The notes: a model not told the origin generated them from the letters alone. 64,000 bases of DNA from Oscillospiraceae bacterium (GCA_015064945.1 SVRF01000004.1:1383-65382), one strand, 5' to 3'; numbered from the stretch's first letter, positions 7,635 through 42,529 are shown. Numbers and translations: made by a program.

Positions 7635-7685
7635 ACGGCTTCCCTCCATATTTTATAATACGCAAAGGCTTGTTTTTTGTTAAAA

Positions 7686-7715: not shown

Positions 7716-7747
7716 TTAATAAAAAACACAAAAAGGAGAAGTCAATT

Positions 7748-9452: not shown

Positions 9453-10364
9453 TTATGCTCTCTTCTTAAGAACAACAACAGCACCTGCGGAGATAACAGC
9501 GAGAACTGCGAATGCAGCAATGCCGAGGTCGCCGGTAGTAGGCTGGTCATTGTTGTTTTCAGGTTCAGAGGATTCTTCTACGGAAGATTCTTCGGAAGTT
9601 TCTTCGGAAGTTTCTTCAGAAGTGGTATCTTCAACGGGAGCTTCAGGGAGAACCTTGATAACGTCGCCGTCAGCGATGGAAGCGAGGTTGTTGGTGCCGT
9701 CGCCGATGAGCCAATCAGTAACGATGATGTCTTCTTCAGTGATTTCTGCGCCTTCTGCAACGTTGTAAGTAGCAGTAAGAACTACGTCGCCTTCGTTGTA
9801 GCCGATAGCGTCTGCGAAGGAAACGATGATGCCGTTAGCTGCAACGTCGAGATCGTTAACAACGGCACGGATGGGAGTGGTCTTGGAACCTTCAACGTAA
9901 GTGAGGTCTTCAGAGGTGGTAAGAGTGAAGCTACCGTTGCCGATGCCTGCGGGAAGAGTAACGGTGATGAGGCCGGTACCGTCTTCATTTACAGTGTAAG
10001 TAAAGGTGAAGGTGATTTCTGCGGGGCCTACAACAACGTCTTCGGAAGTTTCAGCGGAGTCTTCGGAAGTTTCAGCAGAATCTTCGGAAGTTTCAGCGGA
10101 GTCTTCAGAGGTTTCAGCGGAATCTTCGGAAGTTTCAGCGGAATCTTCGGAAGTTTCAGCAGAGTCTTCGGAAGTTTCAGCAGAGTCTTCGGAAGTTTCA
10201 GCAGAGTCTTCAGAGGTTTCAGCAGAGTCTTCGGAAGTTTCAACGGAAACTTCAGAAGTTTCTACGGATTCGTCAACGGATTCAACGGATTCTTCTGCAG
10301 ATACGGTAAAGCAAGTGAATGCTACCATAACGATTGCGAGAAGAAGAGCAATTGTCTTTCTCAT
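9453..10364 (-). CDS. cell-wall-anchored protein: signal peptide, acidic repeat stalk, divergent cohesin-like domain, sortase signal (putative anchoring scaffoldin)
   Basis: Signal peptide ending VSA; (SEDSAET)n; ~125-aa beta-rich domain with cohesin-like pattern (ITVTLPAGIGNGSFTLT..LTYVEG..GIIVSFA..GDVVLTATYNV); C-terminal QPTTGD + hydrophobic helix + KKRA. Confidence 0.7.
   Translation of the reverse strand: MRKTIALLLAIVMVAFTCFTVSAEESVESVDESVETSEVSVETSEDSAETSEDSAETSEDSAETSEDSAETSEDSAETSEDSAETSEDSAETSEDSAETSEDSAETSEDVVVGPAEITFTFTYTVNEDGTGLITVTLPAGIGNGSFTLTTSEDLTYVEGSKTTPIRAVVNDLDVAANGIIVSFADAIGYNEGDVVLTATYNVAEGAEITEEDIIVTDWLIGDGTNNLASIADGDVIKVLPEAPVEDTTSEETSEETSEESSVEESSEPENNNDQPTTGDLGIAAFAVLAVISAGAVVVLKKRA
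10039..10248. repeat. 21-bp tandem repeat, 10 copies (last one variant), encoding SEDSAET
   Basis: Unit TCTTCRGARGTTTCAGCRGAR on the + strand; the first nine copies differ only at synonymous sites. Confidence 0.95.
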
Positions 10365-10705
10365 TTTAGTTCTTTCTCCTTGATTAAATAAAAATTTTCT
10401 TTTGCTTGGGATAAATGAGTTTTGATGCGTAGGTTTTGTTTTAATTGCGTAACCCCCTCCTTTGCCCCATTAAGGACCAAACTGCGGTAAACCGCAACGA
10501 GTGCACCCTAACAGAGCAGCATAACCGGACTGACCAAAGGGCAAGCCCTATGGTCAACCACCATTATACCTGGTGCAAAGCACAGCGTGTGCAAGCACAC
10601 ATCCGTGAATTACAGGGTTAGCAAAGCAACTGCGCCCGCCACACCGAAAGCGACGGCGAGGCAGAGCGGCTGCCCCCACGCAAAGATTGTTACCCTATAA
10701 TCACC
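10365..10705 (-). ncRNA. long structured 5' leader / candidate cis-regulatory RNA
   Basis: Lies between a consensus promoter and the ATG; long stem GTGA-TTATAGGGT/ACCCTGTAA-TTCAC, nested GC hairpin, two G(CUUG)C tetraloop hairpins; G-U wobbles favour the minus strand. Confidence 0.55.
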
Positions 10706-10708
10706 TAT

Positions 10709-10737
10709 ATTATATAGCGGTGTTTGCAATTTGTCAA
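10709..10737 (-). promoter_or_regulatory. perfect-consensus sigA promoter for the anchored cohesin-like gene
   Basis: TTGACA-17 nt-TATAAT with an A-rich upstream tract. Confidence 0.85.
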
Positions 10738-10880
10738 TACTTTTTTTAAAAATTATTATGTCAATATTAACCTAATGAGCGAGTGTATTGCTGTGATTTG
10801 TAGTACAAAACACCATATTTACATTTGGGTTGATTTGCCATTCTATTTGTGTTATAATAACACGAAAGGCAGGTGTCATT

Positions 10881-11762
10881 ATGGCGGCTTGCGATATTTG
10901 TCCGAGAAGATGCGGCGTTGACCGAAACACTGCGTTTGGCTTTTGCGGCGAGGGTGCGCCGGTGCGTGTCGCGCGTGCTGCGCCCCACTATTGGGAGGAG
11001 CCGTGTATATCCGGCATAAAGGGCAGCGGCACGGTGTTTTTCAGCGGTTGCAACCTTAGATGCGCGTTTTGCCAAAACGGTGCTATATCCCACAAAGGGA
11101 TAGGCGAAAAAGTTACTGCCTGTCAGCTTGCCGATATTTTTATGCGATTGCAGGCAGAGGATGTGCACAACATAAACCTGGTTACGCCCACGCATTTTGC
11201 CGTGCAAATAAAAGAAGCCTTGTTGTCCGCAAAAAGCAAGGGGCTTTACTTACCTATCGTGTGGAACAGCGGCGGATACGAAAGCGTTGATACTTTGCGT
11301 TTGCTTAAAGACGTTATTGACATCTATATGCCCGACTTTAAATACGTAAGTGCAGATCTAAGCCGCAAATACTCCCATGCAGAGGACTATTTCTCCGTAG
11401 CGAAGGCGGCACTTGATGAGATGGTGTTGCAAAAAGGCGGTGCTGTATTTGAGGATGGGATTATGCAAAAGGGTGTGCTGGTACGGCATTTGGTTTTGCC
11501 CGGTTGTACCCATGACAGCAAAGCGGTTTTACGCTTTTTGCACCGCAGGTACGGTGCGTCTGTATACATAAGCGTAATGAAGCAATATACTCCGCCTAAG
11601 CATCCCGTACCCGACCAACTGGGACGGGCGCTTTATGAGGAGGAATACAAAGAGGTATGTGAATACGCCGAGAAGCTTGGCATAGAGCAAGGCTTTTTTC
11701 AAGAGGGAGACCCTGTAGGCGAAAGCTTTGTTCCCGATTTTGATTTAAGCGGGGTGAAATGA
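10881..11762 (+). CDS. radical SAM protein, PflX-like
   Basis: CDICPRRCGVDR, HYWEEPCISG, GTVFFSGCNLRCAFCQN (CxxxCxxC), VRHLVLPG. Confidence 0.88.
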   Translation: MAACDICPRRCGVDRNTAFGFCGEGAPVRVARAAPHYWEEPCISGIKGSGTVFFSGCNLRCAFCQNGAISHKGIGEKVTACQLADIFMRLQAEDVHNINLVTPTHFAVQIKEALLSAKSKGLYLPIVWNSGGYESVDTLRLLKDVIDIYMPDFKYVSADLSRKYSHAEDYFSVAKAALDEMVLQKGGAVFEDGIMQKGVLVRHLVLPGCTHDSKAVLRFLHRRYGASVYISVMKQYTPPKHPVPDQLGRALYEEEYKEVCEYAEKLGIEQGFFQEGDPVGESFVPDFDLSGVK

Positions 11763-12319
11763 GTTTGGTTGATAAAGAAACACTTGTAAGGGTTAAGGAC
11801 TATATACCCGATATATATGTTGACTTACCCTACAGCCGTAATGACAATTTTACGGGAAAAAGGCTTTATAATTTTAAGGATGCCTATTTACGCTACGGTA
11901 CGGTGTTAAAGCTTAAAGCCGCACAGGAATATGTGCGTGCGCACGGGGCGAGCATAATGATACTTGATGCGTACCGTCCTGCCGCCGCCCAATTTATTAT
12001 GTGGGAGGCTATGCCCGACGATGATTTTGTTGCCGACCCAAGACGGGGTTTTTCCAAGCATACGAGAGGAAGCACGGTAGATGTGACTTTGGTTACTCCC
12101 GAGGGTAGGCCTGTTGCTATGCCCTCCCCTTTTGACGATTTCAGCGGCGGAGCAAAACGGGTATACGACAACGTGCCCGAGGATGCGAGAAACAATATTC
12201 TGCTGTTGGAAGCCGCTATGGAGCAAGCAGGTTTTTGGGGCTACATAAACGAGTGGTGGCATTTTAACGACCACGATATTTACCCTGTGTTGGAAGAACC
12301 GGAGTTTTCGCTTTTATGA
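11759..12319 (+). CDS. D-alanyl-D-alanine dipeptidase (peptidase M15D, VanX/DdpX family)
   Basis: DNFTGKRLY, DAYRP, SKHTRGSTVDVTL (SxHxxGxxxD) and EWWHF. Confidence 0.9.
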   Translation: MSLVDKETLVRVKDYIPDIYVDLPYSRNDNFTGKRLYNFKDAYLRYGTVLKLKAAQEYVRAHGASIMILDAYRPAAAQFIMWEAMPDDDFVADPRRGFSKHTRGSTVDVTLVTPEGRPVAMPSPFDDFSGGAKRVYDNVPEDARNNILLLEAAMEQAGFWGYINEWWHFNDHDIYPVLEEPEFSLL

Positions 12320-12331
12320 GGAGGCGGTCTT

Positions 12332-12508
12332 ATGGAAAACAAATGCCTTAGCTGTGAATATTTCGATTATGATGACGAGACCGATACAGAAGGCTGTACC
12401 CGTGGGCTTGACGAAGATGATATGCTTAGATTTATGATGGGACAGACTGCTGCGTGTCCTTATTATAAATTCTACGACGAATACAAAACAGTAAGAAAAC
12501 AGAACTGA
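12332..12508 (+). CDS. small Cys-containing protein (DUF6472-like, 58 aa)
   Basis: GAGGAGG RBS; manual translation MENKCLSCEYFDYDDETDTEGCTRGLDEDDMLRFMMGQTAACPYYKFYDEYKTVRKQN*; below the ORF-track cutoff. Confidence 0.75.
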   Translation: MENKCLSCEYFDYDDETDTEGCTRGLDEDDMLRFMMGQTAACPYYKFYDEYKTVRKQN

Positions 12509-12518
12509 AAGGTGGGTT

Positions 12519-13712
12519 TTGACAATGATAAACAAAAAGATGGAACAGTTGGGAAAGGTGCGCTCTGTTATACGCGAGCTGTTTGAGTACGGTAAAAAGC
12601 GCAAGGCGGAGATCGGCGAGGACAAGGTGTTTGATTTCAGCTTGGGCAATCCCTCCGTACCTGCACCCGACTGTGTCAACGAAACTATAAAGGCGCTTAC
12701 CGAAGAGATGAGCTCTTTGCAGCTTCACGGCTATTCCTCTGCACAGGGCGATGCGGGTGTACGCAAATCCATTGCCGACTACTTGAACAAAGAGCACGGT
12801 GAGAGCTTCACCCCTGACAGCATTTATATGACGGTTGGTGCCGCCGCCAGCCTTACCATTTGTCTTAATGCTTTGGTATGTGACGGCGACGAGGTTATAG
12901 CTTTTGCGCCATTCTTCCCCGAATACCGCGTGTTCTCCGAAAGCGCAGGCGCTAAATTTGTTGCCCTTGCCCCCACAGAGGATTTCCAAATCGACGGAGA
13001 GGCATTTGCCGCGGCAATAAACGCAAATACCAAGGCGGTTATTGTCAACAGCCCCAACAATCCCTCCGGCGTTGTACTTACCGAGGAAAGCATAAAAACG
13101 CTTTGTGCCGTGCTTAAGGATAAAAGCAAAGAATACGGACATCCTATATATTTGATAACAGACGAGCCTTACAGAGAACTGGTTTACGACGGAGTTAAGG
13201 TACCCTTTATCACCAAGTATTACGATAACTGTCTTGTTTGCTACTCCTTCAGTAAATCCCTATCCATACCCGGTGAGCGTATCGGCTACATAGCCGTATC
13301 GCCGAGGATGAATTGTGAAAGAGACGTTTATGCGGCCATTTGCGGTGCGGGCAGAGCGCTTGGCTATGTTTGCGCTCCCTGTATGTTCCAGTTCGTTGCC
13401 GCAAGATGTTTGGGGCAAACGGCAGATGTCTCTGTCTATAAGCACAACAGAGACCTGCTTTACAACGCCCTTTGCGAATACGGCTACAAATGCGTTAAGC
13501 CTGACGGCGCTTTCTATTTGTTCCTTAAGACCCCTGAGGAAGACGCATCTGCCTTTTGCGAAAACGCAAAAAAGAAGGAGCTGTTGGTTGTACCCTCCGA
13601 CTCGTTCGGTTGCCCCGGCTATGTTAGGATATCCTACTGTGTATCCACAAAGCAGATAGAAAATGCTCTGCCCGCTTTTAAGGCATTGGCAGAGGAATAC
13701 GGCTTGAAATAA
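12519..13712 (+). CDS. PLP-dependent class I/II aminotransferase (aspartate aminotransferase-like)
   Basis: FSLGNP, NSPNNPSG, DEPYREL, SFSKSLSIPGERIGY; the true start may be ATG 12525. Confidence 0.92.
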   Translation: MTMINKKMEQLGKVRSVIRELFEYGKKRKAEIGEDKVFDFSLGNPSVPAPDCVNETIKALTEEMSSLQLHGYSSAQGDAGVRKSIADYLNKEHGESFTPDSIYMTVGAAASLTICLNALVCDGDEVIAFAPFFPEYRVFSESAGAKFVALAPTEDFQIDGEAFAAAINANTKAVIVNSPNNPSGVVLTEESIKTLCAVLKDKSKEYGHPIYLITDEPYRELVYDGVKVPFITKYYDNCLVCYSFSKSLSIPGERIGYIAVSPRMNCERDVYAAICGAGRALGYVCAPCMFQFVAARCLGQTADVSVYKHNRDLLYNALCEYGYKCVKPDGAFYLFLKTPEEDASAFCENAKKKELLVVPSDSFGCPGYVRISYCVSTKQIENALPAFKALAEEYGLK

Positions 13713-13722
13713 GGAGAGCTTT

Positions 13723-15504
13723 ATGAAAACAAGAAAAGAGATGAACCCCGAGTTTTTGTGGGACTTAAGCCATATATTCAAAGACGATTCCGCTTGGGAA
13801 GCGGCTTGTGAGGAAGCCGAAACGGCTATTGCCGCAGTTGCCGAAGCGCAAGGCACCTTGGGCGACAGCGCAGAAGCAATGAAAAAAGGCATAGGTCTTA
13901 TGTGCGATGCGGAAGAAAAGGTTATGCTTTGCTATCTGTATCCTATGCTTAAAAAGTCCACCGATGCAGGCGACAGCACTTTTCAGGCTATGGAAGCGAA
14001 GGCTATGGGGCTTATTGTAAAGCTTCAGTCTGCGGCGGCTTTCCTTAATCCCGAAATAGTTGCCATCCCCGAAGATCGTTTTGAGGAAATAGTGGCAAAC
14101 CCCATACTTAAAGACGAGCTTTTCAGTCTGCGCAAGGTAGTCAAGGCTAAGGCGCACACACTGTCAGCTGAGCAAGAGCTTATGCTGGCAAAGCTTGCCG
14201 ATGCGGCACAGACACCCGATAACGCATTCTCTATGCTTAACAACGTGGATTTGGAGTTTCCTACTATCAAGGACGCCGAAGGCAAGGATGTTCGGCTTAG
14301 CAACGGCAACTTCGGTGTTTACAGAGAAAGCCCCGTACGCAGTGTAAGAGAGGCAGCGTTTACCTCTTATTTTAACACCTTTAAAAAGTTTGAAAACACC
14401 ATTGCGGAGCTTTACAGCGGCAGCGTTAAGCTTGATTGCTATTTCGCGGACGTGCGCGGCTACAGCAGTGCCAGAGAGTCGGCGCTTTTCAACAACGATG
14501 TTCCCGAAACAGTATATGACAGCCTTATAGAAGCGGTGCACGACAGCCTGCCCTATATGCGCAAGTATTTAGAGCTTAGGAAAAAGGTTTTAGGCCTTGA
14601 AAAGATCGATTTGTTTGACCTTTACACACCTATGGTAGAGGACGTAAGCTTTGAAATGCCCTATGAAAAGTCGGTATCTCTTGTTAAGGAAGCTCTTAAA
14701 CCTCTCGGCGAAGAATACGGCAAGCTGCTTAATATGGCATTTGACAACAAGTGGATCGACGTATACGAAAACAAAGGCAAAAGAAGCGGCGCCTTTTCCT
14801 GCGGGGTACACGGCGTTCATCCCTATGTTTTGCTTAACTACACCGACACCCTTGACGACGCATTTACCCTTGCACACGAGTTGGGGCACGCAATGCACTC
14901 CTATAAGTCCTCCGAAGCCCAAAGCTTTCTTAACCACAATTACAGCATAATGGTGGCAGAGGTTGCTTCTACGGTTAACGAAGTGCTTTTGACATTACAC
15001 TTGCTTAAGACCGAGACCGACCCCAAGAGACGTGCTTACGTGCTTAACCACTTCCTCGAAAGCTTCCGTACCACCCTTTACCGCCAAACCCTGTTTGCGG
15101 AGTTTGAGAGGGAGACCCACAGTATGTGCGAAAAGGGAGAGGCGCTTACGGCACAAAGTCTTTCCGAGCTGTACAAGGGGCTTGTTTCCAAGTACTATGA
15201 AGGTGCGGAGATCAATGAGATTATGGCAAACGAATGGTCTTATATCCCCCACTTTTATACCGCATTTTATGTTTATCAATATGCTACGGGCTTTTCAAGC
15301 GCAGTAGCTATTGCAAAGAATATTTTGGAGACGGGCGATGCCACAGGATATTTGAAGTTCCTTACACTGGGCGGAAGTGACTACCCGATTGAAGAGCTTA
15401 AGGTTGCGGGCGTTGACCTTACCAAGCCTGAAACCGTTAAGAATGCGTTAGGTTTGTTTGACAGCACCATCGACGAGCTTGCAGAGCTTCTGGAGAAGCT
15501 GTAA
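13723..15504 (+). CDS. pepF: oligoendopeptidase F (peptidase M3B)
   Basis: GKRSGAFS, TLAHELGHAMHS (HExxH), AEVAST, IPHFY..FYVYQYA. Confidence 0.93.
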   Translation: MKTRKEMNPEFLWDLSHIFKDDSAWEAACEEAETAIAAVAEAQGTLGDSAEAMKKGIGLMCDAEEKVMLCYLYPMLKKSTDAGDSTFQAMEAKAMGLIVKLQSAAAFLNPEIVAIPEDRFEEIVANPILKDELFSLRKVVKAKAHTLSAEQELMLAKLADAAQTPDNAFSMLNNVDLEFPTIKDAEGKDVRLSNGNFGVYRESPVRSVREAAFTSYFNTFKKFENTIAELYSGSVKLDCYFADVRGYSSARESALFNNDVPETVYDSLIEAVHDSLPYMRKYLELRKKVLGLEKIDLFDLYTPMVEDVSFEMPYEKSVSLVKEALKPLGEEYGKLLNMAFDNKWIDVYENKGKRSGAFSCGVHGVHPYVLLNYTDTLDDAFTLAHELGHAMHSYKSSEAQSFLNHNYSIMVAEVASTVNEVLLTLHLLKTETDPKRRAYVLNHFLESFRTTLYRQTLFAEFERETHSMCEKGEALTAQSLSELYKGLVSKYYEGAEINEIMANEWSYIPHFYTAFYVYQYATGFSSAVAIAKNILETGDATGYLKFLTLGGSDYPIEELKVAGVDLTKPETVKNALGLFDSTIDELAELLEKL

Positions 15505-15558
15505 AACAACCAACATCTCACACTCGTTCGTAACGAAACCACATAACAAATAAAAAGG

Positions 15559-15591
15559 ATGCCGTGTAGGTTTTTGAAACCTACACGGCAT
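15559..15591. terminator. intrinsic terminator between convergent genes
   Basis: ATGCCGTGTAGGTTT-ttg-AAACCTACACGGCAT. Confidence 0.8.
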
Positions 15592-15607
15592 TAGTATTGT
15601 TAAGGTT

Positions 15608-16513
15608 TTATTCTGCCAAATATTCAAAAGGACCTATGAGGTCTGCATCGTACTTAAGAACGTTTGCGGCATCAAGGCTGTTGATCGTGCCGTCAAAGTT
15701 TACGTCTGCCGCCAAACTTTGGTCGTCATCCAAAGTGATAATCTTTGCATCGTGGCGAAGGATATATGCCGCATCCAAGTTGTCGGTAGAGCCGTCGCCG
15801 TTAACATCACCTATCTGATAAAAGTTTATATCTATAGTCATATCGCTTGTAACATTACCTTCTGTAACGCTGTAGGATTTGAAGCCGAAGCCTTCAACAA
15901 GAGAGATCTCGCCATCGGCAAATGAGGGAAGAATATCGGCAACAGCGGTACCTGCGGGAACGCTTATCTGAGTTTCGCCTACAACAGAACCGCCAACACC
16001 TACGTTGAAGGTAACGGTATAGTTTTCAACAAAAACAACATTTTTGTTAACGTCGCCGTCCGCCTGTGTTGCAAGTCTTGTTCTGCCGTTGGAAAGGTTC
16101 CAAAGCTTAACGTTTATATCATCACCGGTAATATCTGTGGCTGTGCCGTTAACTGCGAAGCTTACCGTAAGAACAACAGTACCTTCCGCATAATCCTCGG
16201 TATACGCAAAAGCCACGGAAAGACCGCTTACACCGTCTCTGTCATAATCTTCGTAAACGGTGCGAGAGATATCGGAAGCAAGAGATCCTTCAACAAGGCT
16301 GAGCTTATCGGAAGTATCAAAAACTATCTTACCGCTTTGTACGCCTGCAGGCAAGGTTGCGGTAAGTACGGCTGTGTTGCTGTTTTTGTCAACAACCAAG
16401 TTAAGACTGTAGGTGGGATATGAAGCCGCAAAAGCCTGCGTACCGAAAGCGCTTATCACAACAGCAAGCACAAGAACAAAAGCGATTGAAAGAGACATAC
16501 CTTTTTTAAACAT
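15608..16513 (-). CDS. secreted cohesin-like + dockerin protein (putative adaptor scaffoldin)
   Basis: Signal peptide (AFA); N-domain aligns with the 9453 domain; C-terminal duplicated Ca-loop GDVNGDGSTDNLDA / ADVNFDGTINSLDA. Confidence 0.75.
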   Translation of the reverse strand: MFKKGMSLSIAFVLVLAVVISAFGTQAFAASYPTYSLNLVVDKNSNTAVLTATLPAGVQSGKIVFDTSDKLSLVEGSLASDISRTVYEDYDRDGVSGLSVAFAYTEDYAEGTVVLTVSFAVNGTATDITGDDINVKLWNLSNGRTRLATQADGDVNKNVVFVENYTVTFNVGVGGSVVGETQISVPAGTAVADILPSFADGEISLVEGFGFKSYSVTEGNVTSDMTIDINFYQIGDVNGDGSTDNLDAAYILRHDAKIITLDDDQSLAADVNFDGTINSLDAANVLKYDADLIGPFEYLAE

Positions 16514-16573: not shown

Positions 16574-16602
16574 ATTTTAACATATACACAGGAAATTGTC
16601 AA
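16574..16602 (-). promoter_or_regulatory. sigA promoter
   Basis: TTGACA-17 nt-TAAAAT with TG extension. Confidence 0.7.
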
Positions 16603-16652: not shown

Positions 16653-18671
16653 TCAGAACAATTTCACAAGCCCTGCGTCGTGCTTAAGAACTTGGGAAGC
16701 ATCCAAGCTATCCACTTCGCCGTCGCCGTTAACATCTCCCACTGCCAACTGATATACATCAAGCCCTGTCAACTCTGCATCGTAGCGAAGAATGTATGCC
16801 GCATCAAGATTATCCGTTTCGCCGTCATTGGTAACATCACCTATGGCATAGCTTAGCTCTGCCGTGCAGGAGCTTATGATTTGAGGAACACCACATCTGA
16901 TCGTACCGGTTATGGGTGTTGCCGCGCCCGACAAGGCGTTCTCGGACAGATGATAGCTGTAACTTACGGTGTTGCCGTCAACGGAAAGCTCTGTGCCCAT
17001 AACGGTGGGGGCGCTTATTATTCCGCCGTTGCCGTTGCTAAGCACAAACATATAAGCTTGGTTGGGAATAAATGTGCCCGTATACTCTATCCTGTATGTT
17101 AAAGTCTGAGCCGCATTGTTGTAAACCACGGTCACATCTTTTACAGTGCAAGCATAAATTTCGTCACCTTCGGAGCTTTCATCGGAGCTTTCAGCTTCTG
17201 AGCTTGTTTCTTCTAAATTCTCCGCATATTCCGCACGGACAACCAAGTTCATACCGCCGACGGTTATTGTCGTTGACACAGCACTTGCATCGGTTATCTC
17301 TCCGATACCTTCCACTATAGCCCAAGTGTCAAAGCGCATCCCCGCCTCGGGAGCGTCCGCAACAACTCTGATAACAGCGCCTGATTGGTAATAATCCTGT
17401 CTGTCATCGGGGTGGACCGTGCCGTTTATGACATCTACGCTGTAAAGCTGAGTAAAGCTTCCTCTTACCGTAGCGTCACCGTAAACGGTTACCGTAGTAA
17501 TTTGTGCCGTGGGGTCTGCTATTACAGCGTTGCCCTCTACAGTCCAGCCATCGAAAATGTATGCTCCACCTTCTGTTGCAAAGCGTATAGTTACCTTTTC
17601 TCCGTAGCTGTATGTGCCGCTTCCGTCACCGCCCACTACGTTAAGGGTGTACTGTGAGTCTGTATAGGTGGTTTTTATTATTACGTTGCTGTTTACGGTA
17701 AGTGCGGTGGTGCTTGCACTTGCGTCGGCAACTGTGCCGCCTACCTCTACCTCCCAGCCTGTAAACTCTTTACCTGTTACGGAGTCGGCAATTATTTCTA
17801 TTACGTCTCCCGCCTTGTAGTATTCCTTTACATCAGACTCCGCTATCTTACCGCCTGTTATGGTGACGGTGTAAAGCTCGGTATAATTTGCCTTTACCGT
17901 TGCGTTGCCGTATACGGTTACTGTAGTGCTTTGTGCGGTAGAGTCTGCTATTACAGCGTTGCCCTCTACAGTCCACCCCTCAAACTCGCAATTAGTGCCG
18001 GGGGCAGGGATAAACTCTATATCTACAACACTGCCGTAGCTGTGCACACCGCTACCTGTGCCGTCCACCACATTAAGGGTGTACTGCGATGCAGTATAAA
18101 CGGCGTTAACCGTCATATCCGATGTAACGGCGGAAAAATCTTTGTCCCACTTCACAAACTCATAGCCGGCAACGAGGGGAGCATCGGGGGCTGCGGCGGC
18201 GGTGCCGTAATCCACGGTTTGGGTTTTTAAAACCGTGCCGTCTTTGCCCACAAAGCTTACAGTAGGGTTTTTATCTATTATTACCACATCTACTGTATAA
18301 GGGGATATAATGTAAGACTGTGTACTCCGCACCGTTACACGCAAGGGCTTTGCGGCACTTGTAACAAGGCTTGTATCCACAGGAAAGCTATAGCTGAAGC
18401 TGTTATTTGCCACACCAAGCTGAGTGCCGTTAACGGTACGCATAGATATCTGCGTGCCGTTGGCGTTATTGAGTATAAACACATAGCTTTGGTTTGGAAT
18501 AAATGTGCCGCTGTATTTCACCGTGCAATTTACGGTTTCGGTCTGCGTATTATATACCGCAAGCATAGAGCTTACCTCGCAAGCGGATGTCGCATTTACG
18601 CTGATACCGCCCACCAAGCCCAGCATAAAACAAAAGCACAAAAGGCAAGCAGTTATCTTTTTAATTTTCAT
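16653..18671 (-). CDS. secreted dockerin protein with InlB-B/bacterial-repeat-like stalk and a duplicated unknown domain
   Basis: Signal peptide; repeats YTLNVV.G.GSG.YSYG..V.I...F.GW; two copies of a Y.GTFIPNQ.Y.F.L.N.NG domain; C-terminal dockerin GDVTNDGETDNLDA / GDVNGDGEVDSLDA. Confidence 0.8.
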   Translation of the reverse strand: MKIKKITACLLCFCFMLGLVGGISVNATSACEVSSMLAVYNTQTETVNCTVKYSGTFIPNQSYVFILNNANGTQISMRTVNGTQLGVANNSFSYSFPVDTSLVTSAAKPLRVTVRSTQSYIISPYTVDVVIIDKNPTVSFVGKDGTVLKTQTVDYGTAAAAPDAPLVAGYEFVKWDKDFSAVTSDMTVNAVYTASQYTLNVVDGTGSGVHSYGSVVDIEFIPAPGTNCEFEGWTVEGNAVIADSTAQSTTVTVYGNATVKANYTELYTVTITGGKIAESDVKEYYKAGDVIEIIADSVTGKEFTGWEVEVGGTVADASASTTALTVNSNVIIKTTYTDSQYTLNVVGGDGSGTYSYGEKVTIRFATEGGAYIFDGWTVEGNAVIADPTAQITTVTVYGDATVRGSFTQLYSVDVINGTVHPDDRQDYYQSGAVIRVVADAPEAGMRFDTWAIVEGIGEITDASAVSTTITVGGMNLVVRAEYAENLEETSSEAESSDESSEGDEIYACTVKDVTVVYNNAAQTLTYRIEYTGTFIPNQAYMFVLSNGNGGIISAPTVMGTELSVDGNTVSYSYHLSENALSGAATPITGTIRCGVPQIISSCTAELSYAIGDVTNDGETDNLDAAYILRYDAELTGLDVYQLAVGDVNGDGEVDSLDASQVLKHDAGLVKLF

Positions 18672-19468: not shown

Positions 19469-22084
19469 TTAGGGTTGAGTAGCTATAAACTTACGCATAA
19501 TTACCAAATCCGTCGTGTTAACAGCAGTGTCACCGTTGCCGTCGGAAGCCTTAAGGCCTGCCGAGGTTACGCCCGTCCGTTTGGAAATATATTTCCTTAG
19601 CATAAGCATATCGGTGGTATTACAGGTTGCGCTGCCGTCCAAGTCCATAGCAACAACAACTTCAATAACCGTGTCATTATAGTTTACTGTGTAGCCCGTA
19701 CCTATATAGCCGGAGCTTACTGCGTTGCCTGCCAAGTTCTTAACGGTAACATCCACGGTGAACAGAGCCTTGAAGGTATTTACATCCATAGCTAAGTCGC
19801 CGCCGTAGAGATAGCTTTCATCCATAGAATAACCATCTGCCGTTGCACTTGTGGTAAGTTCAAGAACGGGGTCAGGTTCCGGCTCGGGCTCGGGAACTAC
19901 AACATTATCTGAGCCGTAAACCTCTATTTCGGTAAACGCAGTTACGTAAGAAGCCGAAGTGAAGGTTACCCTTACGTATCTTGCGGTAACCCATGCGAAG
20001 TCTACCTTATGGGTGTAAACATTGCTTAACGCAGAGCCGTTTACATAAGAGTAAAGCAAAGTATCAACAAGGTTTTCTACATAATGATAGGTTACACCGT
20101 CGGTGGAGTATTCGATTTCCGCACTGTTGGTCTGATAGTCGCCAACACTGCTGCCACTGTCACCGAAGTCACAAATAGCAACCATACGGAAATTCCTTTG
20201 GGCGCCCAAGTCGATGGTCGTACCAAACTTCTGTGTGGTACCCTGGAAGGAAACGTAAGGAGTGTCCGTAGTGTTATAGCTATCCGTTGCCTTTGAGCCG
20301 TCGGTAAGCTTGGTTCTGTTTGTATCCTGCTGGTTGGTGTACTGATAGGTTATATCGGTACTGCCCTTCCAGGTGGTTGTATAGGACTTATTAAGTGCGT
20401 AGTTGGTAAGTCCGGTGGTATCTATTTCACCTGCGGTTTCGTAGTTAGCTTTAATTACCGCATCGGAACTGCCAATAGTAAAGGTGGTATTGTAAGAGTT
20501 AGCGTCACCGAAAGTGCCGCTACCGCTTTCGATAGACCAATGGGTGAAGGAGTAGCCTGTTCTTGTACTTGCGGAGATGTTAACAACCGTGCCTGCCGCA
20601 TATCTGCCGCTGCCTACGCCGTAGGTAATGGAAAGGTCAAAGTCTGTACGGTAGGTTGCTTCCAGCTCGATATCGCTGTTAAGAACCTTAACAGTAGTGG
20701 TTTTAGCTGTCTTGTCGGTAATGGTTGCAATACCGTTCTTAACCTCCCAAATATCAAAGAGACCTGCGCTGGAGGTTGCAGCGGTTACCGTAAAGGTCTC
20801 ACCCTTGGCAAGATACTTAACAGTGCTGCCGAAGGTGGTATCGTTCTTAACGCTTACCTTATAAACTCTGGTAAGAGTGCTGATATTTGCGGTGCCGCCG
20901 TTATACGTAGCGGTAGAACCGGAAATATTGGTAACGTTTACTATGCTGCCGGAAGATGTTCTGTAAGTACCGTAGTCATAGTCGTTTCTTACGTATGTAA
21001 AGTTATCAAGGTCTACCCAACCAACAGTACCGTTGGAGAGAGTTACCTTACCCCAGTCCCAACCGGTGATCTTAGCGTCAACAACGGTGCCGGAAGCGAT
21101 GGTGCCAACAGAACCGGTTGCGGAGTTACCTGCACGGTAAACGGTTACAGAGGAGTTTGCCTTGTAAAGACCGGGCTTGTAATACTTATAGTTGGGGTTG
21201 TAATATGTGTTCTTCACAGTATCGGTAGAAACATAAGAACCGCCGAATGCCTTGTAATAGTCATACATTCTGTCACGGAACACCTTATAATAAGTCCCAT
21301 CAACGCTGAAGGAAGCGTTGGTACCGAACACGTATCTCATCTGTATAGGACAGTTCTTACCGGCAGCGTGGTAGTGGGTGTAAACCTGAGTATAGGGGTT
21401 GAAGTTGAGCTTTACGCAGATAAACGCAACGAGCATTGCGAGGTATGTAGCGGTCTTATCAAAGTGAGATGCGTACCAGTCGTACATATCCGCCTGATTC
21501 CAGTGTTCACCGGAGAAGGTAGCATCTGCAGGGAAACCGTCGGTTGCGGTTTCAATACCTATACCGGTGCTGTTGGACAAATCGGAAATATTATATTTAC
21601 TTTTCTCGGTTGTAGAAGACCAATAGTTACCGCCTGCGTGCCAGCCCATTTCGTTAACGGGAAGCATCTGATAAAGGCCGTCGTTGCCGCAGGTGTAGTG
21701 CCAAGAAACGGAAGCGGTAGTAGTTCTACCGTAATTGTGGTTTGCAAGAGAAGTAGAAGTTACAGGGTATGCACCTGTATTGTGTACAACAACGTACTTC
21801 ATAGAGTTTATTGTGCCGGGGCGGTTTTTCTTGCCGGAAACTATAAACTCGGTCTTCATCTGTATTTCGTGGCGTGTACCTTCTGCCATCATAAAGGAAG
21901 TGTTATTTGTAAGCAAATCGTTATCAGGCAGTTGGAGATAATCGGGCACATAGATCTCAGGCGCTACAAAGTCCGCATCCGCAATAGCGGAAACAGTGGT
22001 AGTAGCAAAAGAGAATGTGCAAACGGTGCTTATCATCATAGCAACGACAAGCATAAAGGAAATTAAGCGTTTGTGATAATTCAT
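19469..22084 (-). CDS. secreted N-acetylmuramoyl-L-alanine amidase (Amidase_2) + SH3b + repeats + F5/8C-like + X-module/dockerin
   Basis: VVVHNTG, SWHY, GWHAG, N..GIGIE and THYHAAGKNCP Zn-amidase motifs; SH3b WGKV...GWV; TIDLG..ARYVRV..EIEVY discoidin-like; dockerin DLDGSATCNTTD / DGNGDTAVNTTD. Confidence 0.85.
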   Translation of the reverse strand: MNYHKRLISFMLVVAMMISTVCTFSFATTTVSAIADADFVAPEIYVPDYLQLPDNDLLTNNTSFMMAEGTRHEIQMKTEFIVSGKKNRPGTINSMKYVVVHNTGAYPVTSTSLANHNYGRTTTASVSWHYTCGNDGLYQMLPVNEMGWHAGGNYWSSTTEKSKYNISDLSNSTGIGIETATDGFPADATFSGEHWNQADMYDWYASHFDKTATYLAMLVAFICVKLNFNPYTQVYTHYHAAGKNCPIQMRYVFGTNASFSVDGTYYKVFRDRMYDYYKAFGGSYVSTDTVKNTYYNPNYKYYKPGLYKANSSVTVYRAGNSATGSVGTIASGTVVDAKITGWDWGKVTLSNGTVGWVDLDNFTYVRNDYDYGTYRTSSGSIVNVTNISGSTATYNGGTANISTLTRVYKVSVKNDTTFGSTVKYLAKGETFTVTAATSSAGLFDIWEVKNGIATITDKTAKTTTVKVLNSDIELEATYRTDFDLSITYGVGSGRYAAGTVVNISASTRTGYSFTHWSIESGSGTFGDANSYNTTFTIGSSDAVIKANYETAGEIDTTGLTNYALNKSYTTTWKGSTDITYQYTNQQDTNRTKLTDGSKATDSYNTTDTPYVSFQGTTQKFGTTIDLGAQRNFRMVAICDFGDSGSSVGDYQTNSAEIEYSTDGVTYHYVENLVDTLLYSYVNGSALSNVYTHKVDFAWVTARYVRVTFTSASYVTAFTEIEVYGSDNVVVPEPEPEPDPVLELTTSATADGYSMDESYLYGGDLAMDVNTFKALFTVDVTVKNLAGNAVSSGYIGTGYTVNYNDTVIEVVVAMDLDGSATCNTTDMLMLRKYISKRTGVTSAGLKASDGNGDTAVNTTDLVIMRKFIATQP

Positions 22085-38050: not shown

Positions 38051-39832
38051 TTAGTATATGATGTTTTTTCCGGAGCAATGCTTCCTTATCATCAGCAGGT
38101 CGGCGGTATTTACGGCACTGTCGCCTGTAAGATCTGCCGCCGCCTTTTCCAATGCGGAAGGAGATGAAGCGGTAAGAAGCTTACGTACAGCTACCATATC
38201 CGTGGTGTTTACGGCACCGTCGCCCGAGAGGTCGCCGGGGATAACGACCCTAACGCTGTTGAGAACATCGCCTGCCCCATCATACTGAACAACGGTGCAG
38301 CCCGTGCCGATATAGCCCATATCTGCAAGAGCATTACCTCCAACGGCAAGCACGCTTACATCGCATTTAAACTGCGCCTTAAGGTCTGCAGCGGAAACAC
38401 CCATTGCCTTTACCGTTACAAAGCTATCGTCAAGGCTGTACTTTGAGCCGTCAACCAGCTCGAAGGGAGCATCAAACTCAGAAGCCAAGGTAACAACGGT
38501 ATATGTGCCCACATCGTAGCTTGTACCGTTTTCCGTATAAGTATAGCTGATTTTATAACCGTCCTTAAGCACCGCACTGCCTGCAACTGCGTTGCCTGCG
38601 GCATCTTTAACGGTAACGGTACAGTCGGGCATACCGTCTATGGCGTGCTGCGCGGTAGTACCGTAGATAACACGGATATCATCACCGCAAAGCTTTTTCA
38701 TATTCTTGATAAGTGCAGGTCTCTGAACTTCCCAGTTAGCATTATAACCCGCATCGTCGGGGTGACAGCTGTCTATAAGACAATCGGGAGAGAGACCCTC
38801 TGCCTTCCACATGGTATAAAGGTCAATAACAAGATTATTTTCCTCTGCCGCAACCTGACGCATACAGTCAATAAAGCTGTCAAGATATGCAACCTCGCCG
38901 CCGAAGGAGCTGTAGTCGCCTTTATCAAACACGCCGCCCACGGTGGTGGACATATCAATAACATTAGCGGTCATAAACAGTGTGGTTGCACCAAGAGCGT
39001 TATTTTTGGTGCGGATACCTCTGAGCGCAGTCTTGTATTTTTCCAGTAAGGAGGTTGTGGGTGCCGCAGAATAAGCGTCGTTAATACCGAAAGAAACTAT
39101 CACTATCTCGGGGTTATGAGAAGCTACATAGGTATCATAACGGGCAGAAAGAGATGCCCAGGAGGTATCGCCCCCGAAGCCTGCATTGATAACGGTGGTG
39201 TGGAAATAGTCGCCCCAAACAGAGGTCCAACCGCCGCCTGCCGTAATACTGTCCCCCTCGGCAACTATTTTTCTGTTACTGTAAGGAGTAACCTTTGGAA
39301 GGGTAGGTCTTACTGTTTCCACGGTAACGTAGGAGTTGGAAGAGTAGTCACTGCCGCCCCATGTACCTGTTATGCTTAAAGTTTTGTTAGCAACATCTAT
39401 GTTGTGAAGGTAAAGCCTGTCCCCTACCCTTACATGTTGCCACACGGACCAGTTAGCCCTTGAAATAGAAGAACCTGCGGAAGTGAGAGGTGCATAACTG
39501 AACAGTATGCCGATATAGCCCTGCTCTACCACCTTAGTATAAGAACGGTGATTTGCAACCTTGGTTACCACCTCGTAGTATCCGCCCTCTGCATTATACT
39601 TTGCATAAGCCTTTTCGTAATAAAGACCGCTTATACTGTTACCGGGGGTAACTATGGAAAAATGGTTTGCGGTGACACTGTCCCAAACACCGTTGAACTT
39701 GGTAACAGTAAGCTTACCTATGTTTTCTACAACTTTGTCACCTTCTATTCGCTTATTTTCCTCCGCACCCGCAACAACGCACATGCCAAGCAGCATTATT
39801 GCGGAAAGAACAAAAGCAATAATTCTTTTCAT
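38051..39832 (-). CDS. secreted SGNH/GDSL hydrolase + X-module/dockerin
   Basis: Blocks GDSIT, NAGFGG, FGIND, DSCHP; GYIGTG then dockerin GDLSGDGAVNTTD / DLTGDSAVNTAD; unknown N-terminal domain. Confidence 0.85.
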   Translation of the reverse strand: MKRIIAFVLSAIMLLGMCVVAGAEENKRIEGDKVVENIGKLTVTKFNGVWDSVTANHFSIVTPGNSISGLYYEKAYAKYNAEGGYYEVVTKVANHRSYTKVVEQGYIGILFSYAPLTSAGSSISRANWSVWQHVRVGDRLYLHNIDVANKTLSITGTWGGSDYSSNSYVTVETVRPTLPKVTPYSNRKIVAEGDSITAGGGWTSVWGDYFHTTVINAGFGGDTSWASLSARYDTYVASHNPEIVIVSFGINDAYSAAPTTSLLEKYKTALRGIRTKNNALGATTLFMTANVIDMSTTVGGVFDKGDYSSFGGEVAYLDSFIDCMRQVAAEENNLVIDLYTMWKAEGLSPDCLIDSCHPDDAGYNANWEVQRPALIKNMKKLCGDDIRVIYGTTAQHAIDGMPDCTVTVKDAAGNAVAGSAVLKDGYKISYTYTENGTSYDVGTYTVVTLASEFDAPFELVDGSKYSLDDSFVTVKAMGVSAADLKAQFKCDVSVLAVGGNALADMGYIGTGCTVVQYDGAGDVLNSVRVVIPGDLSGDGAVNTTDMVAVRKLLTASSPSALEKAAADLTGDSAVNTADLLMIRKHCSGKNIIY

Positions 39833-39983: not shown

Positions 39984-40036
39984 GTATCATCTTTAATTGA
40001 ATGCAGACAAAACAGTCTGCGGAAAGGCGGTTTAGT

Positions 40037-42529
40037 ATGAAAAAACTGTTGTCACTGGTTTTGGTACTTGCCCTTTGCATTCCCGTTATTGCAATAAACG
40101 GCATTACCGAAACAACGGTTGCGGCTGCTTCCAGCCACGTTTACATGATCGTAACCAACCCCGGGCAAGACATGAACACGCAGATGAACATAAGCTTTCA
40201 CTCTGACTACACCTACACAGGCTGTTACGTAGAGTATACCAAGGCTACCGACACCTCCTTTGCCAACGCAACAAAGGTTACGGGTAGCTATGACAGCGAT
40301 GACTATATGTGGTTCTACAACAGATACACCACATCCTCTACCTCATCTGCAAAGTTCACAACCAAATTTTTAAACTACAATGTTGACCTCAGCGGTCTTA
40401 CTCCCAACACCAAGTACATTTACAGAATTTGTGACGGTGCCGGTGCTTACTCCGAGACTTATGCCTTCAAAACCGCAGGTCAGAGCGAGTTCTCTATGAT
40501 TTGGCTCTCCGACATTCACATAAGCCACACGGAAACTACGAAGCAAACAAAATATCAGAACGCTATAAACTGGGCTGAAAACAACACTAAATACGAAATC
40601 GGCTTAAATATCAACACCGGTGACGTTGTTGCCAGCGGTGACAGATATAAGTTCTGGCAGCAGTTCTACTCTCCCACCGTTTACAAGAAATACCCTTACG
40701 CTTCCACAGTCGGCAACCACGACCTTTATGACAGTATGATGGATGACGACCCCGAATATACTCAGTACTGGAAGGGCGGCGAATACTTCCGTATTACTGC
40801 AAATTATCCCGATAACGGTTATGTTCAGACATCCTCCAGAATAAGCGGTTATCTTGTAGATGACGGTTATTCTGCCCACGCAAGCAAGTCTTCCTCTACC
40901 CTTTTCGACCCCGGCTCCGGTAAATATGCAGGTAAATACATAACCGGTGCAAAGGAAGACCTTAACGGCAGAACATACTGGTTCCTTTACAACAGAATAC
41001 TTTATATAAGCTTTGACTATTATGCAATGACCGCAACATCTGAAAAGCAAACCGCTTTTGACTGGGCATACGATGTTATCGATGCTAACAAGGGCAAGTA
41101 TGATTATCTCATAGTATCCGAACACCTTAACCTTATTTGGGGCGACGGTGGTAACAGCAGATATTATACTGATTACCAGAATTTCCTTGATACCGCAAAT
41201 GTAGATATATTCCTTTGCGGCGATAACCATATTTATTACCGTTCCGACAAGCTTTACGGCGGTGCAAAGACAAGTGACCCCGAAAAAGGCACGGTAATCA
41301 TTCAGGCACCCGCTATTACCAATGTTTCTACCTATCCTACCTACACAGGCGCTAAGGAACCCTACGGTGTTTCCAGATATTCTTCTGCTGACTATGTCGG
41401 TGCGTTTGCAATAGATGTTGACAGCAGCGGCATGCACTTTAAGCTTGGTATAGGCTCCGGCACGGGCGCTAATATGGCTACCCACGAAACCTTTACCATT
41501 CCCAAGAAGACCCGTTATACCGATGCTGCTACCGGCATCTACACCGCTACAAGCGCGCTTACAGTTAAGGAAACCTCCGATGCTTCCGCAAAGACACTTA
41601 CCTCCATCCCCGCAGGCACAGTATTTGAAGTTAACGAAGGTAACGGTCAGTGGGGCAGAGTTCGCTACAACGGATTTACCGGTTGGGTAAACCTTGGCAC
41701 TATGTCCCCCACCCACTACACAACAGACGTAAATACACCCGAACAGTTTGAAATCTCCAACGTAAACGTTGGTTACGCTTCCTCTCATATGTTGGATGCA
41801 TATACCCCTGCTTACGGCAGTACCATTGCAAACGGCGGCTGGCTGTTCAGCGGCAACGTAACCGTTACGGGCGTAAGAGACAGCAACGGCGCATACAAGG
41901 TTACTGCACAGGATACAAGCGGTAACGCAAAGAACACCACCGCTATTCCCGCTGACGGTTGTGTATTTCTTATTAACAAGAGCTACGCAAATTATGCAGC
42001 GTTTATGGACGCGCTTGCAGTTGGTAAATACTTTACCTTAGACTCTAACAGAATAACCGTTTACACTGCTAATCCCGGCGAAGCCAATGTAACACCTTCT
42101 ATCCCCGGTACGGAGCCTGAGCCTGAGCCCGAGCTTGAGCTTACCGAAACCGCAGTAAGCAACGGCTACTCTATGGACGAAACCTATCTTTACGGCAGTG
42201 CTGTCGGTCTTAACATTGCTTCTATTAAGGCTTTATTTACCGTAGATGTTACCGTTAAGAATTTGACTGGCAGCGAAGTAAGCTCCGGCTTTGTAGGTAC
42301 AGGTTATACAGTAGTTTATATGGACACCGTTATAGAGGTAGTTGTTGACTTTGACTTGGATGGCAGTGCAACCTGTAACACCACCGACCTGCTTATGCTT
42401 AGAAAATACATTTCCAAGCGTTCCGGCGTTACGGATGCAGGTATTAAGGCGGCTGACGGTAATGGTGATACCACCATTAACACGACAGACTTTGTAATTT
42501 TGCGCAAGTTTATTACTTCCCAACCCTAA
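40037..42529 (+). CDS. secreted purple-acid-phosphatase-like metallophosphoesterase (FN3-like + MPP) + SH3b + X-module/dockerin
   Basis: LSGLTPNTKYIYRI FN3-like; SDIH, TGDVV, VGNHD, CGDNH; SH3b WGRVRYNGFTGWV; dockerin DLDGSATCNTTD; ATG 40037 after GGAAAGG. Confidence 0.85.
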   Translation: MKKLLSLVLVLALCIPVIAINGITETTVAAASSHVYMIVTNPGQDMNTQMNISFHSDYTYTGCYVEYTKATDTSFANATKVTGSYDSDDYMWFYNRYTTSSTSSAKFTTKFLNYNVDLSGLTPNTKYIYRICDGAGAYSETYAFKTAGQSEFSMIWLSDIHISHTETTKQTKYQNAINWAENNTKYEIGLNINTGDVVASGDRYKFWQQFYSPTVYKKYPYASTVGNHDLYDSMMDDDPEYTQYWKGGEYFRITANYPDNGYVQTSSRISGYLVDDGYSAHASKSSSTLFDPGSGKYAGKYITGAKEDLNGRTYWFLYNRILYISFDYYAMTATSEKQTAFDWAYDVIDANKGKYDYLIVSEHLNLIWGDGGNSRYYTDYQNFLDTANVDIFLCGDNHIYYRSDKLYGGAKTSDPEKGTVIIQAPAITNVSTYPTYTGAKEPYGVSRYSSADYVGAFAIDVDSSGMHFKLGIGSGTGANMATHETFTIPKKTRYTDAATGIYTATSALTVKETSDASAKTLTSIPAGTVFEVNEGNGQWGRVRYNGFTGWVNLGTMSPTHYTTDVNTPEQFEISNVNVGYASSHMLDAYTPAYGSTIANGGWLFSGNVTVTGVRDSNGAYKVTAQDTSGNAKNTTAIPADGCVFLINKSYANYAAFMDALAVGKYFTLDSNRITVYTANPGEANVTPSIPGTEPEPEPELELTETAVSNGYSMDETYLYGSAVGLNIASIKALFTVDVTVKNLTGSEVSSGFVGTGYTVVYMDTVIEVVVDFDLDGSATCNTTDLLMLRKYISKRSGVTDAGIKAADGNGDTTINTTDFVILRKFITSQP

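Follow-up and report, generated by a model that had tools for sequence, protein, structure and literature searches.

We analysed a window of 64,000 nucleotides (nt), one strand of a single genome (Oscillospiraceae bacterium, GCA_015064945.1 SVRF01000004.1:1383-65382), and found that two of its open reading frames (ORFs) carry the same domain of about 130 amino acids (aa). Both ORFs are on the minus strand; they encode P0001 (303 aa) and P0002 (301 aa), and their coordinates are given in Table 1. We believe that these two secreted proteins of an uncultured gut bacterium of the Clostridia, each with one copy of the domain, are probably a pair of divergent cohesins, an anchor (P0001) and an adaptor (P0002), which belong to a non-cellulosomal surface display system based on cohesin-dockerin pairing.

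Residues 122-237 of P0001 and 34-157 of P0002 are identical at 51 of 124 positions (41%; 65.1 bits, expect value (E) 1e-16, BLASTP). When the six frames of the window were searched with a hidden Markov model (HMM) of the family, exactly these two copies were recovered, with E of 2e-43 and 2e-47, and nothing else matched at a domain E<10. There was no other cohesin candidate among the matches in the window. The preliminary description of this DNA, made from the sequence alone, had proposed two copies of a shared domain, and in this it was right: the positions it gave (9645-10019 and 16028-16420) lie close to the HMM envelopes, and all five pairs of motifs that it quoted are present in the alignment of P0001 with P0002.

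The predicted structures point to a cohesin fold. AlphaFold2 was given the family alignments of 65 and 67 rows (A2 and A4, which leave out P0006, P0034 and P0044), and the resulting models were all-beta for both domains, with a predicted local distance difference test (pLDDT) score of 96.3 and a predicted template-modelling score (pTM) of 0.89 for P0002, in which DSSP assigned 10 strands, and 96.1 and 0.89 for P0001. Foldseek comparison of the P0002 model with the PDB gave eight matches at E<=1e-3, all of them cohesins, namely Clostridium acetobutylicum CohA2, the non-cellulosomal cohesin of Archaeoglobus fulgidus, the GH33 cohesin of C. perfringens and ScaB Coh7 of P. cellulosolvens; among the 41 matches listed, 35 were cohesins or cohesin-like modules. 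For P0001, six of seven matches at this threshold were cohesins and the seventh was a carbohydrate-binding module (CBM), CBM2; the best was ScaB Coh5 of Ruminococcus flavefaciens (5n5p), with a template-modelling (TM) score of 0.58-0.60 and E 2e-4. The top matches span cohesin types I, II and III as well as non-cellulosomal cohesins, with probability 1.00 and TM scores up to 0.54 (P0002) and 0.60 (P0001). Both predicted models thus superpose best on solved cohesins, and not on immunoglobulin or CBM folds, an outcome that speaks for the reading in the preliminary description.

Sequence profiles led to the cohesin superfamily through one intermediate clade. With P0074 and P0075 removed, the remaining 63 family rows aligned to the clade of P0074 over 119 columns (hhalign, 97.9% probability, E 4e-13). 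P0074 and P0075 are the weakest members of the family, and their whole-protein scores against the Pfam cohesin model PF00963 are 20.7 and 16.9 bits, both below the cut-off of 24.1 bits; relatives of P0074 at 65% identity (P0081-P0083) are monovalent and pass it, with 34.1, 29.9 and 30.8 bits. Three of the five other clade members scanned (P0079-P0083) thus pass PF00963, and all five have LPXTG-type tails. This profile-profile comparison argues for homology to the cohesin superfamily. The neighbours proposed by a language model lend weak support to cohesin identity: 22 of 30 neighbours for P0002 and 26 of 30 for P0001 fell in PF00963-carrying sets (top score 0.93), while the recognition values, 2252 and 2219, are below the reliability mark of the tool, 2300. 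Because the modelled structure, the sequence profile and the language-model neighbours agree, we conclude that the domain most likely belongs to the cohesin superfamily and has diverged too far for PF00963 to detect it. As that model stands, the two domains are not among its members, and NCBIfam gave nothing relevant for either protein.

In P0001 the signal peptide leads into a long acidic Ser/Glu/Thr repeat stalk; behind the cohesin-like domain come another acidic stalk and a sorting signal. The acidic stretch 3' of the domain is encoded by a 12-bp tandem repeat at 9576-9623. Both stalk repeats, of 21 and 12 bp, vary in unit and length among the orthologues, which are 303, about 343 and 300 aa long, and we therefore believe that the stalk evolves by repeat turnover. 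The C-terminus reads ...QPTTGDLGIAAFAVLAVISAGAVVVLKKRA and consists of QPTTGD, a hydrophobic stretch of 20 residues (LGIAAFAVLAVISAGAVVVL) and KKRA, as the preliminary description had read it; this is the three-part layout of a sortase substrate. The same tail, PxTGD[AL]G-helix-KK[RK]A, was found in L001 and L002, which are contigs of metagenome-assembled genomes (MAGs), and in P0017, P0026, P0030, P0032, P0039, P0067, P0068 and P0075, with variants in P0018 (AKTGD...KKRS) and P0039 (SGTGD). A pattern search recovered P0001-like tails in the orthologues and in 10 other family members. NCBIfam returned sub-threshold matches only for the tail of P0001 (IsdC tail, E 0.022; EF0750_LPXTG, E 0.065). 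We call this C-terminus sortase-like because its motif is non-canonical and its matches to anchor models are sub-threshold; processing by a sortase is presumed.

P0002 consists of a signal peptide (…AFA/AS), the cohesin-like domain, a small beta domain and a dockerin. The dockerin end claimed in the preliminary description is borne out by Pfam, in which this region belongs to Dockerin_1 (PF00404; 40.8 bits against a cut-off of 22.9, E 2.6e-10). It shows two D.N.DG...D segments, the duplicated calcium-binding loop-helix, and matches solved dockerins in the PDB (1ohz_B, E 1.2e-7) together with the dockerin regions of R. bromii Amy12 and Amy16. Pfam gave no match for the middle domain of P0002 (aa 166-232); the region aligned to it matches Flg_new in relatives such as P0023 (1.5e-7) and P0036 (2.2e-3), and the middle domain is probably a spacer resembling the Listeria-Bacteroides repeat (Flg_new). 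A word-index search found four orthologues of P0002, each 301 aa long and 64-93% identical. The same search with the P0001 domain returned no homologue of 166-531 aa, although orthologues of P0001 exist in L001 and L002. Shine-Dalgarno sequences, promoter-like sites and signal peptides are present for both genes.

Possible ligands are close at hand. Eight proteins of the window carry PF00404 above the cut-off, and thus dockerin-bearing partners occur in the same genome as the candidate cohesins. By eye, an alignment of the dockerin sequences divides them into four of class A (DVNGDG..NSLDAA.VLK.DA.L) and four of class B (D.DGS..NTTD…LRK.I), and both classes match solved PDB dockerins. Pfam placed a glycoside hydrolase (GH) domain on none of the eight; the sole GH domain found in the window, GH20, is in a protein without a dockerin match. 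Two tandem metallophosphoesterases (Pur_ac_phosph_N, Metallophos and SH3 domains) are 53% identical over 674 aa and carry dockerins of class B and class A, respectively. A pair of paralogues with different dockerin classes suggests two separate docking specificities in one organism. In the PDB, two entries for a serine protease (8x39_A and 8x3a_A, 151-152 aa) match the class A dockerin of P0002 at residues 4-57 and the class B dockerin of P0004, a candidate ligand, in two stretches, best at residues 77-132. The protein in these entries may carry two dockerins resembling the two classes of the window.

In the system that we propose, the C-terminal signal of P0001 would attach the anchor to the wall or keep it membrane-bound, and one cohesin would be presented on a long acidic stalk. 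The cohesin-like domains would bind dockerins in the usual calcium-dependent way, and the anchor would hold dockerin-bearing proteins at the cell surface. P0002 would dock through its own class A dockerin and offer a second cohesin, which would either chain or switch between the two dockerin classes. The cargo would comprise a muramoyl-alanine amidase, a GDSL esterase, two metallophosphoesterases and InlB-repeat proteins. We read the system as non-cellulosomal display because this cargo is not cellulolytic. All the family-fused dockerins recognised by pattern are of class A, which would suit both self-chaining, known from R. bromii Amy4, and type switching. A complex of the P0001 domain with the P0002 dockerin (residues 228-301) and two calcium ions was predicted, without controls, with ipSAE values of 0.31 and 0.30 against a mark of 0.32; these values speak neither for nor against binding.

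The domain has a small but varied family. A profile of six sequences (A1) was used in a HMMER search of 1.84 billion (1.84e9) cluster representatives and gave 70 matches at E<=1e-3; the stricter threshold of E<=1e-10 retained 56. We accepted 64 of the 70 as true members and set the remaining six aside as spurious, since they match in short, repeated parts only (P0069, P0071-P0073, P0076 and P0077; P0070 is partial). The family is thus small, with about 64 representatives among 1.84 billion. Dockerin_1 matched at E<=0.01 in 27 of the 63 relatives scanned with Pfam. Five layouts recur. In the first, a signal peptide is followed by the domain, zero to several Flg_new repeats and a dockerin; in the second, by sometimes another domain, the cohesin-like domain, an acidic linker and the PxTGD[AL]G-helix-KK[RK]A tail. 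The third, of about 230 aa, begins with a lipoprotein-type signal peptide (…C) and a linker and ends with the domain itself. In the fourth, the domain is joined to an enzyme or binding protein, with a dockerin (CHAP, M23, SH3 plus ricin, LRR_5) or without a dockerin match (the VWA protein P0057 and a Ser/Thr kinase plus leucine-rich repeat (LRR) protein). The fifth has two or three tandem copies (P0010-P0013). Simple patterns sorted 68 members into 29 with a class A dockerin, none with class B, 11 with a sortase-like tail, 16 with a lipoprotein-type leader and 12 unclassified. Cohesins can be expected to occur on several kinds of surface anchor or together with a dockerin, and the layouts of the family fit this expectation.

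About a quarter of the family are lipoprotein-type relatives of about 230 aa (P0027-P0031, P0035, P0041, P0046, P0050, P0052, P0054, P0056, P0058 and P0062-P0065). To judge by their leaders, these would be lipid-anchored monovalent cohesins. No lipid-anchored form of cohesin was found in the literature searched, which was available in part: the word "lipoprotein" is absent from the accessible text of PMC13463774, and that of PMC4611034 is also without mention of such a form. Fusions to a peptidoglycan hydrolase (CHAP, M23), ricin/SH3, VWA and Ser/Thr kinase plus LRR occur in P0021, P0025, P0061, P0040, P0049 and P0057 and in L005:5664-8582, and in these proteins the domain often lies directly before a class A dockerin, almost without linker.

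In a maximum-likelihood tree of 67 domains, P0001 and P0002 fall in different clades and the attachment types are interspersed. Attachment labels change 19 times on this tree, compared with a minimum of 3 and a mean of 32 after shuffling. Because of the separate clades and the interspersed labels, we regard P0001 and P0002 as old paralogues and believe that the mode of attachment has been swapped often. A recent duplication of one gene was rejected, since the copies sit in different clades, and so was a single origin for each attachment type, given 19 changes where 3 would be the minimum.

Several observations weigh against the reading of P0001 and P0002 as a cohesin pair. PF00963 misses both proteins even at E<=1 (gathering score 24.1 bits) and matches two of the 67 family domains, both below the cut-off; in this sense the preliminary description was correct to call the domain divergent. 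Searches of PDB sequences with phmmer (P0001, P0002) and hmmsearch (profiles A1, A2) found no cohesin, and the borderline matches of A2, to flavivirus E proteins (E 0.003) and filamins, are chance-like. The structural matches have modest Foldseek E (2e-4 to 1e-2), TM scores of 0.35-0.60 and root-mean-square deviations of 5-10 A. All these TM scores are below the structural criterion in the accessible text of PMC13463774, a TM-align score >= 0.65 to 1OHZ, 1TYJ or 2ZF9, with the reservation that the programs and the alignments differ; 2zf9_B gave a Foldseek TM of 0.45, and 1ohz and 1tyj were not among the matches listed. CBM2, chitin-binding domains, the RrgB pilin and ACE19 were also among the Foldseek matches. 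In 29 of the 67 domains, some 30 residues match PF19079 (CFSR, collagen-flanked surface repeat) weakly and below threshold. The match covers the N-terminal 30 or so residues (P0002 aa 33-60), has a best E of 3e-4 and includes the hairpin TYTVTLTDNGDGTATVTA; it is probably a local similarity of motif. The anchoring motif of P0001 is PxTGD and not the canonical LPXTG, PF00746 (Gram_pos_anchor) gave no match at E<=1, and there is no sortase domain among the 44 ORFs of the window that were scanned. Finally, dockerin binding, the defining activity of a cohesin, is something that we infer, as is the dockerin class bound by each copy, and canonical cohesins serving the dockerins of the window may sit outside these 64 kb.

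The alternative that survives best is a relative of the cohesin fold that no longer binds dockerins and acts as a surface adhesin or a CBM (CBM2-like or chitin-binding-like), carried on stalks, lipid anchors and dockerin proteins. The Foldseek matches to CBM2 (6qfs, 1exg), chitin-binding domains (5dhd, 2czn), ACE19 and the RrgB pilin, with E from 6e-4 to 1e-2, would agree with this, as would the warning in the available part of PMC13463774 that cohesin-like beta-sandwich profiles also capture CBMs. Many relatives are on peptidoglycan hydrolases and LRR proteins, a natural place for a binding module. However, cohesins rank above CBMs for both models, and the profile-profile link leads to a clade that passes the Pfam cohesin model. 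Monovalent modules with sortase or lipoprotein anchors, beside eight dockerins and with no other cohesin candidate, also fit a dockerin receptor, and we consider the adhesin or CBM improbable.

It is also conceivable that the domain is a companion that stabilises the adjoining dockerin, like the X module of type II and III X-Doc dyads, and is not a receptor. It adjoins the dockerin almost without linker in the L005 ORF 5664-8582, P0021, P0025, P0033 and P0034, and the family-fused dockerins recognised by pattern are of one class (29 class A against 0 class B among 68 members). Such a role is at odds with the occurrence of the domain where there is no dockerin (sortase-like tails in 11 of 68 members and lipoprotein-type leaders in 16 of 68), with the separate domain that lies between it and the dockerin in P0002, and with the two to three scaffoldin-like tandem copies in P0010-P0013. 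The structural and profile matches go to cohesins as well, and we think that an X-like module is very improbable. That the similarity is due to chance or composition, or that the ORFs are not real genes, is practically negligible: both proteins are rich in low-complexity acidic repeats, but the alignment lies outside the repeats and reaches E 1e-16 with composition-based statistics, 56 relatives in the database are at E<=1e-10, orthologues lie in the same gene order and the folds are confidently modelled. We had already ruled out a chance match or false ORF on the BLASTP E, the relatives and the confident models.

Table 1. Positions of the anchor gene, the adaptor gene, their parts and the candidate ligands, counted from the first letter of the 64,000-nt window (RBS, ribosome-binding site)
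Feature	Coordinates	Strand	Basis
P0001 gene, candidate monovalent wall-anchor scaffoldin	9453..10364	-	ORF, translation and orthologues
P0001 signal peptide, MRKTIALLLAIVMVAFTCFTVSA (…FTVSA/EES)	10296..10364	-	read by eye from the sequence; cleavage presumably after VSA
P0001 acidic stalk, (SAETSED)n, 21-bp tandem repeat, 10.7 copies	10038..10262	-	Tandem Repeats Finder, 90% matches, score 338
P0001 cohesin-like domain, aa 113-246	9627..10028	-	family-HMM envelope; modelled as window:9639-10037
P0001 sorting signal, QPTTGD, hydrophobic helix, KKRA	9456..9545	-	sequence; sortase-like, non-canonical
Promoter-like TTGACA-17-TATAAT of the anchor transcription unit, 12/12 consensus match	10709..10737	-	kept in L001 and L002
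Conserved, structured, putatively non-coding 5' leader between promoter and anchor RBS, about 285 nt, GC-rich	10420..10705	-	counterparts L001:13719-14006, L002:9875-10135
P0002 gene, candidate monovalent adaptor	15608..16513	-	ORF, translation, orthologues
P0002 cohesin-like domain, aa 29-165	16019..16429	-	family-HMM envelope
P0002 middle domain, aa 166-232, spacer of about 65 aa	15818..16018	-	deduced from relatives
P0002 dockerin, class A (DVNGDG..NSLDAA.VLK.DA), aa 235-288	15650..15811	-	Pfam PF00404
Promoter-like site, 11/12 with TG, about 60 nt 5' of the P0002 start	16574..16602	-	consensus match
Terminator-like hairpin, 15 pairs then T-run, directly 3' of the P0002 stop	15559..15591	-	sequence
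P0003, candidate ligand, InlB B-repeat/Flg_new protein, class A dockerin	16653..18671	-	Pfam
P0004, candidate ligand, N-acetylmuramoyl-L-alanine amidase, class B dockerin	19469..22084	-	Amidase_2 1e-16, Dockerin_1 2.5e-8, PDB dockerin matches
Candidate ligand, 811-aa secreted protein, class B dockerin	31159..33594	-	Dockerin_1 1.8e-7
Candidate ligand, GDSL esterase/lipase, class B dockerin	38051..39832	-	Pfam
Candidate ligand, purple-acid-type metallophosphoesterase with SH3, class B dockerin	40001..42529	+	Pfam
Candidate ligand, paralogous metallophosphoesterase, class A dockerin	42706..45219	+	Pfam
Candidate ligand, 365-aa protein, N-terminal class A dockerin directly after the signal peptide	51695..52792	-	Pfam

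The two genes belong to a conserved neighbourhood. In the window, L001 and L002, the common gene order is anchor, radical-SAM protein, M15 peptidase, aminotransferase, M3 peptidase, adaptor and InlB-repeat dockerin protein, and the amidase dockerin protein is also present in L001. The orthologues of P0001 in this order are at L001:14062-15093 and L002:10189-11091, and those of P0002 at L001:7917-8822 and L002:4087-4992; related MAGs are labelled Eubacteriales or Clostridia bacterium. Two of the candidate ligands have further repeated units. The Flg_new repeats of P0003 are flanked by two copies of an unannotated domain of about 90 aa (…YSGTFIPNQSYVFILNNANG… and …YTGTFIPNQAYMFVLSNGNG…), and the 365-aa protein has two internal units of about 90 aa (NIVDDSYGKG…) after its dockerin, with no Pfam family on the remainder. 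On the plus strand, 7670-9274 encodes a protein with a SipL/SPOCS domain, by name a spore-coat morphogenesis family, which suggests that the organism forms spores.

The region between the sigma-70-type promoter-like site and the RBS of the anchor gene is predicted to form a structured leader. Its nucleotide identity is 96.7% with L001 and 94.0% with L002, compared with 65-81% in the flanking coding DNA. The minimum free energy is -127.3 kcal/mol (z -4.66), and none of 100 shuffled sequences was as stable. Among 95 predicted pairs, all four variable ones keep pairing, and the L002 leader cleanly lacks exactly one hairpin tip. Rfam 15 gave nothing at gathering thresholds for the window and the leader (junk only, at E>1), and ARAGORN found nothing. 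A new riboswitch or leader is one possibility, a separate small RNA another. Because only three sequences were compared, it is a lead toward an RNA family.

A more specific combination of these elements can be put forward, which we regard as unlikely in its entirety. The two copies would be receptors of distinct function in a self-contained display system with two orthogonal dockerin classes. The anchor would take class A dockerins, that of the adaptor included; the adaptor would take class B; the domains would form an unnamed clade with three kinds of attachment; and a new, ultra-conserved leader RNA would control the anchor gene. If all of this were true, the adaptor would be a genuine type-switch and would recruit to the wall an amidase resembling an autolysin, along with a GDSL esterase and a phosphoesterase, and the family would be a previously unnamed cohesin clade, fixed to the surface by sortase, lipid anchor and dockerin.

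Among gut Clostridia that do not degrade cellulose, dockerins are a common finding, and the matching receptors often escape notice because cohesins diverge beyond what HMMs can detect. For one uncultured lineage, the family described here is a candidate for such a dockerin receptor. Such a receptor would allow us to predict which enzymes are held at the surface, here a peptidoglycan amidase, an esterase and phosphoesterases as well as repeat proteins. An HMM from the alignments of 65 to 67 rows would annotate about 64 protein clusters that are nameless at present, and cohesins anchored as lipoproteins would extend the known modes of attachment.

Single non-cellulosomal cohesins that serve in protein docking, as we propose here, are found in the glycosidases of C. 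perfringens (2vo8, 2jh2, 2o4e) and in A. fulgidus (2xdh), and these cohesins were among the top Foldseek matches (TM 0.43-0.53). They differ in their host proteins (large toxin-complex glycosidases and an archaeal protein, respectively), have no anchor-adaptor pair and show no sequence similarity to the domains of the window.

R. flavefaciens offers another parallel. According to the available part of PMC13463774, it has a sortase-anchored monovalent cohesin, ScaE, and cohesin-dockerin adaptors that switch type or extend the assembly. ScaE and these adaptors (type III; PDB 2zf9, 5n5p, 5lxv, 8ajy) would follow the same logic as P0001 and P0002, and the best structural match of P0001 comes from this species. 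In contrast to that system, there is no detectable sequence similarity, the Foldseek TM of P0002 to ScaE (2zf9_B) is just 0.45, and neither a polyvalent primary scaffoldin nor a cellulase was seen in the window.

The closest functional analogues of P0001 and P0002 would be Sca2 and Amy4 of R. bromii. In the accessible text of PMC4611034, Sca2 combines one cohesin with a sortase signal at its C-terminus and binds the dockerins of non-glycosidase proteins (peptidases, LRR proteins), and Amy4 (Sca1) has a cohesin followed by a dockerin and can self-associate, in a host that is non-cellulolytic. Monovalent sortase anchors and cohesin-plus-dockerin proteins were therefore already known. The match of the P0002 dockerin to the Amy12 and Amy16 dockerin regions adds to the likeness. 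However, the domains of the window are missed by Pfam, their anchor has the PxTGD motif, and the window cargo holds no amylase or other GH. As far as the available text of PMC13463774 goes, R. bromii is also the sole one of 33 species screened in which AlphaFold2 (AF2) found no scaffoldins beyond those known by sequence.

The same study (Minor et al. 2026, PMC13463774) reports, in the parts available, that AF2 alone could detect 177 of 538 ruminococcal cohesins, and it defines new structural groups. Groups 4-7 of these AF2-only cohesins in Ruminococcus are invisible to HMM and BLAST and include monovalent adaptors and one membrane-tethered single cohesin. The likeness to our domains is a cohesin fold that HMMs do not see, in dockerin-rich gut bacteria of the Oscillospiraceae type; the study covers genomes named Ruminococcus, whereas our relatives are MAGs of Eubacteriales or Clostridia bacterium, and we compare them with its groups by description only. 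The preliminary description had spoken of a new cohesin subfamily. The cohesin part is upheld by predicted structure and by profile, while "new" is a matter of degree, given that HMM-invisible Ruminococcus cohesins have been published. In the literature searched, we found no prior description naming the domain family of P0001 and P0002. That ruminococcal cohesins can be divergent, and that anchors and adaptors can be monovalent, is published in principle (available parts of PMC13463774 and PMC4611034), and the practical gain of the present analysis is therefore modest. Compared with these systems, the new elements are one particular small clade, found in MAGs of uncultured Eubacteriales, the non-glycosidase nature of its cargo, and the relatives anchored as lipoproteins.

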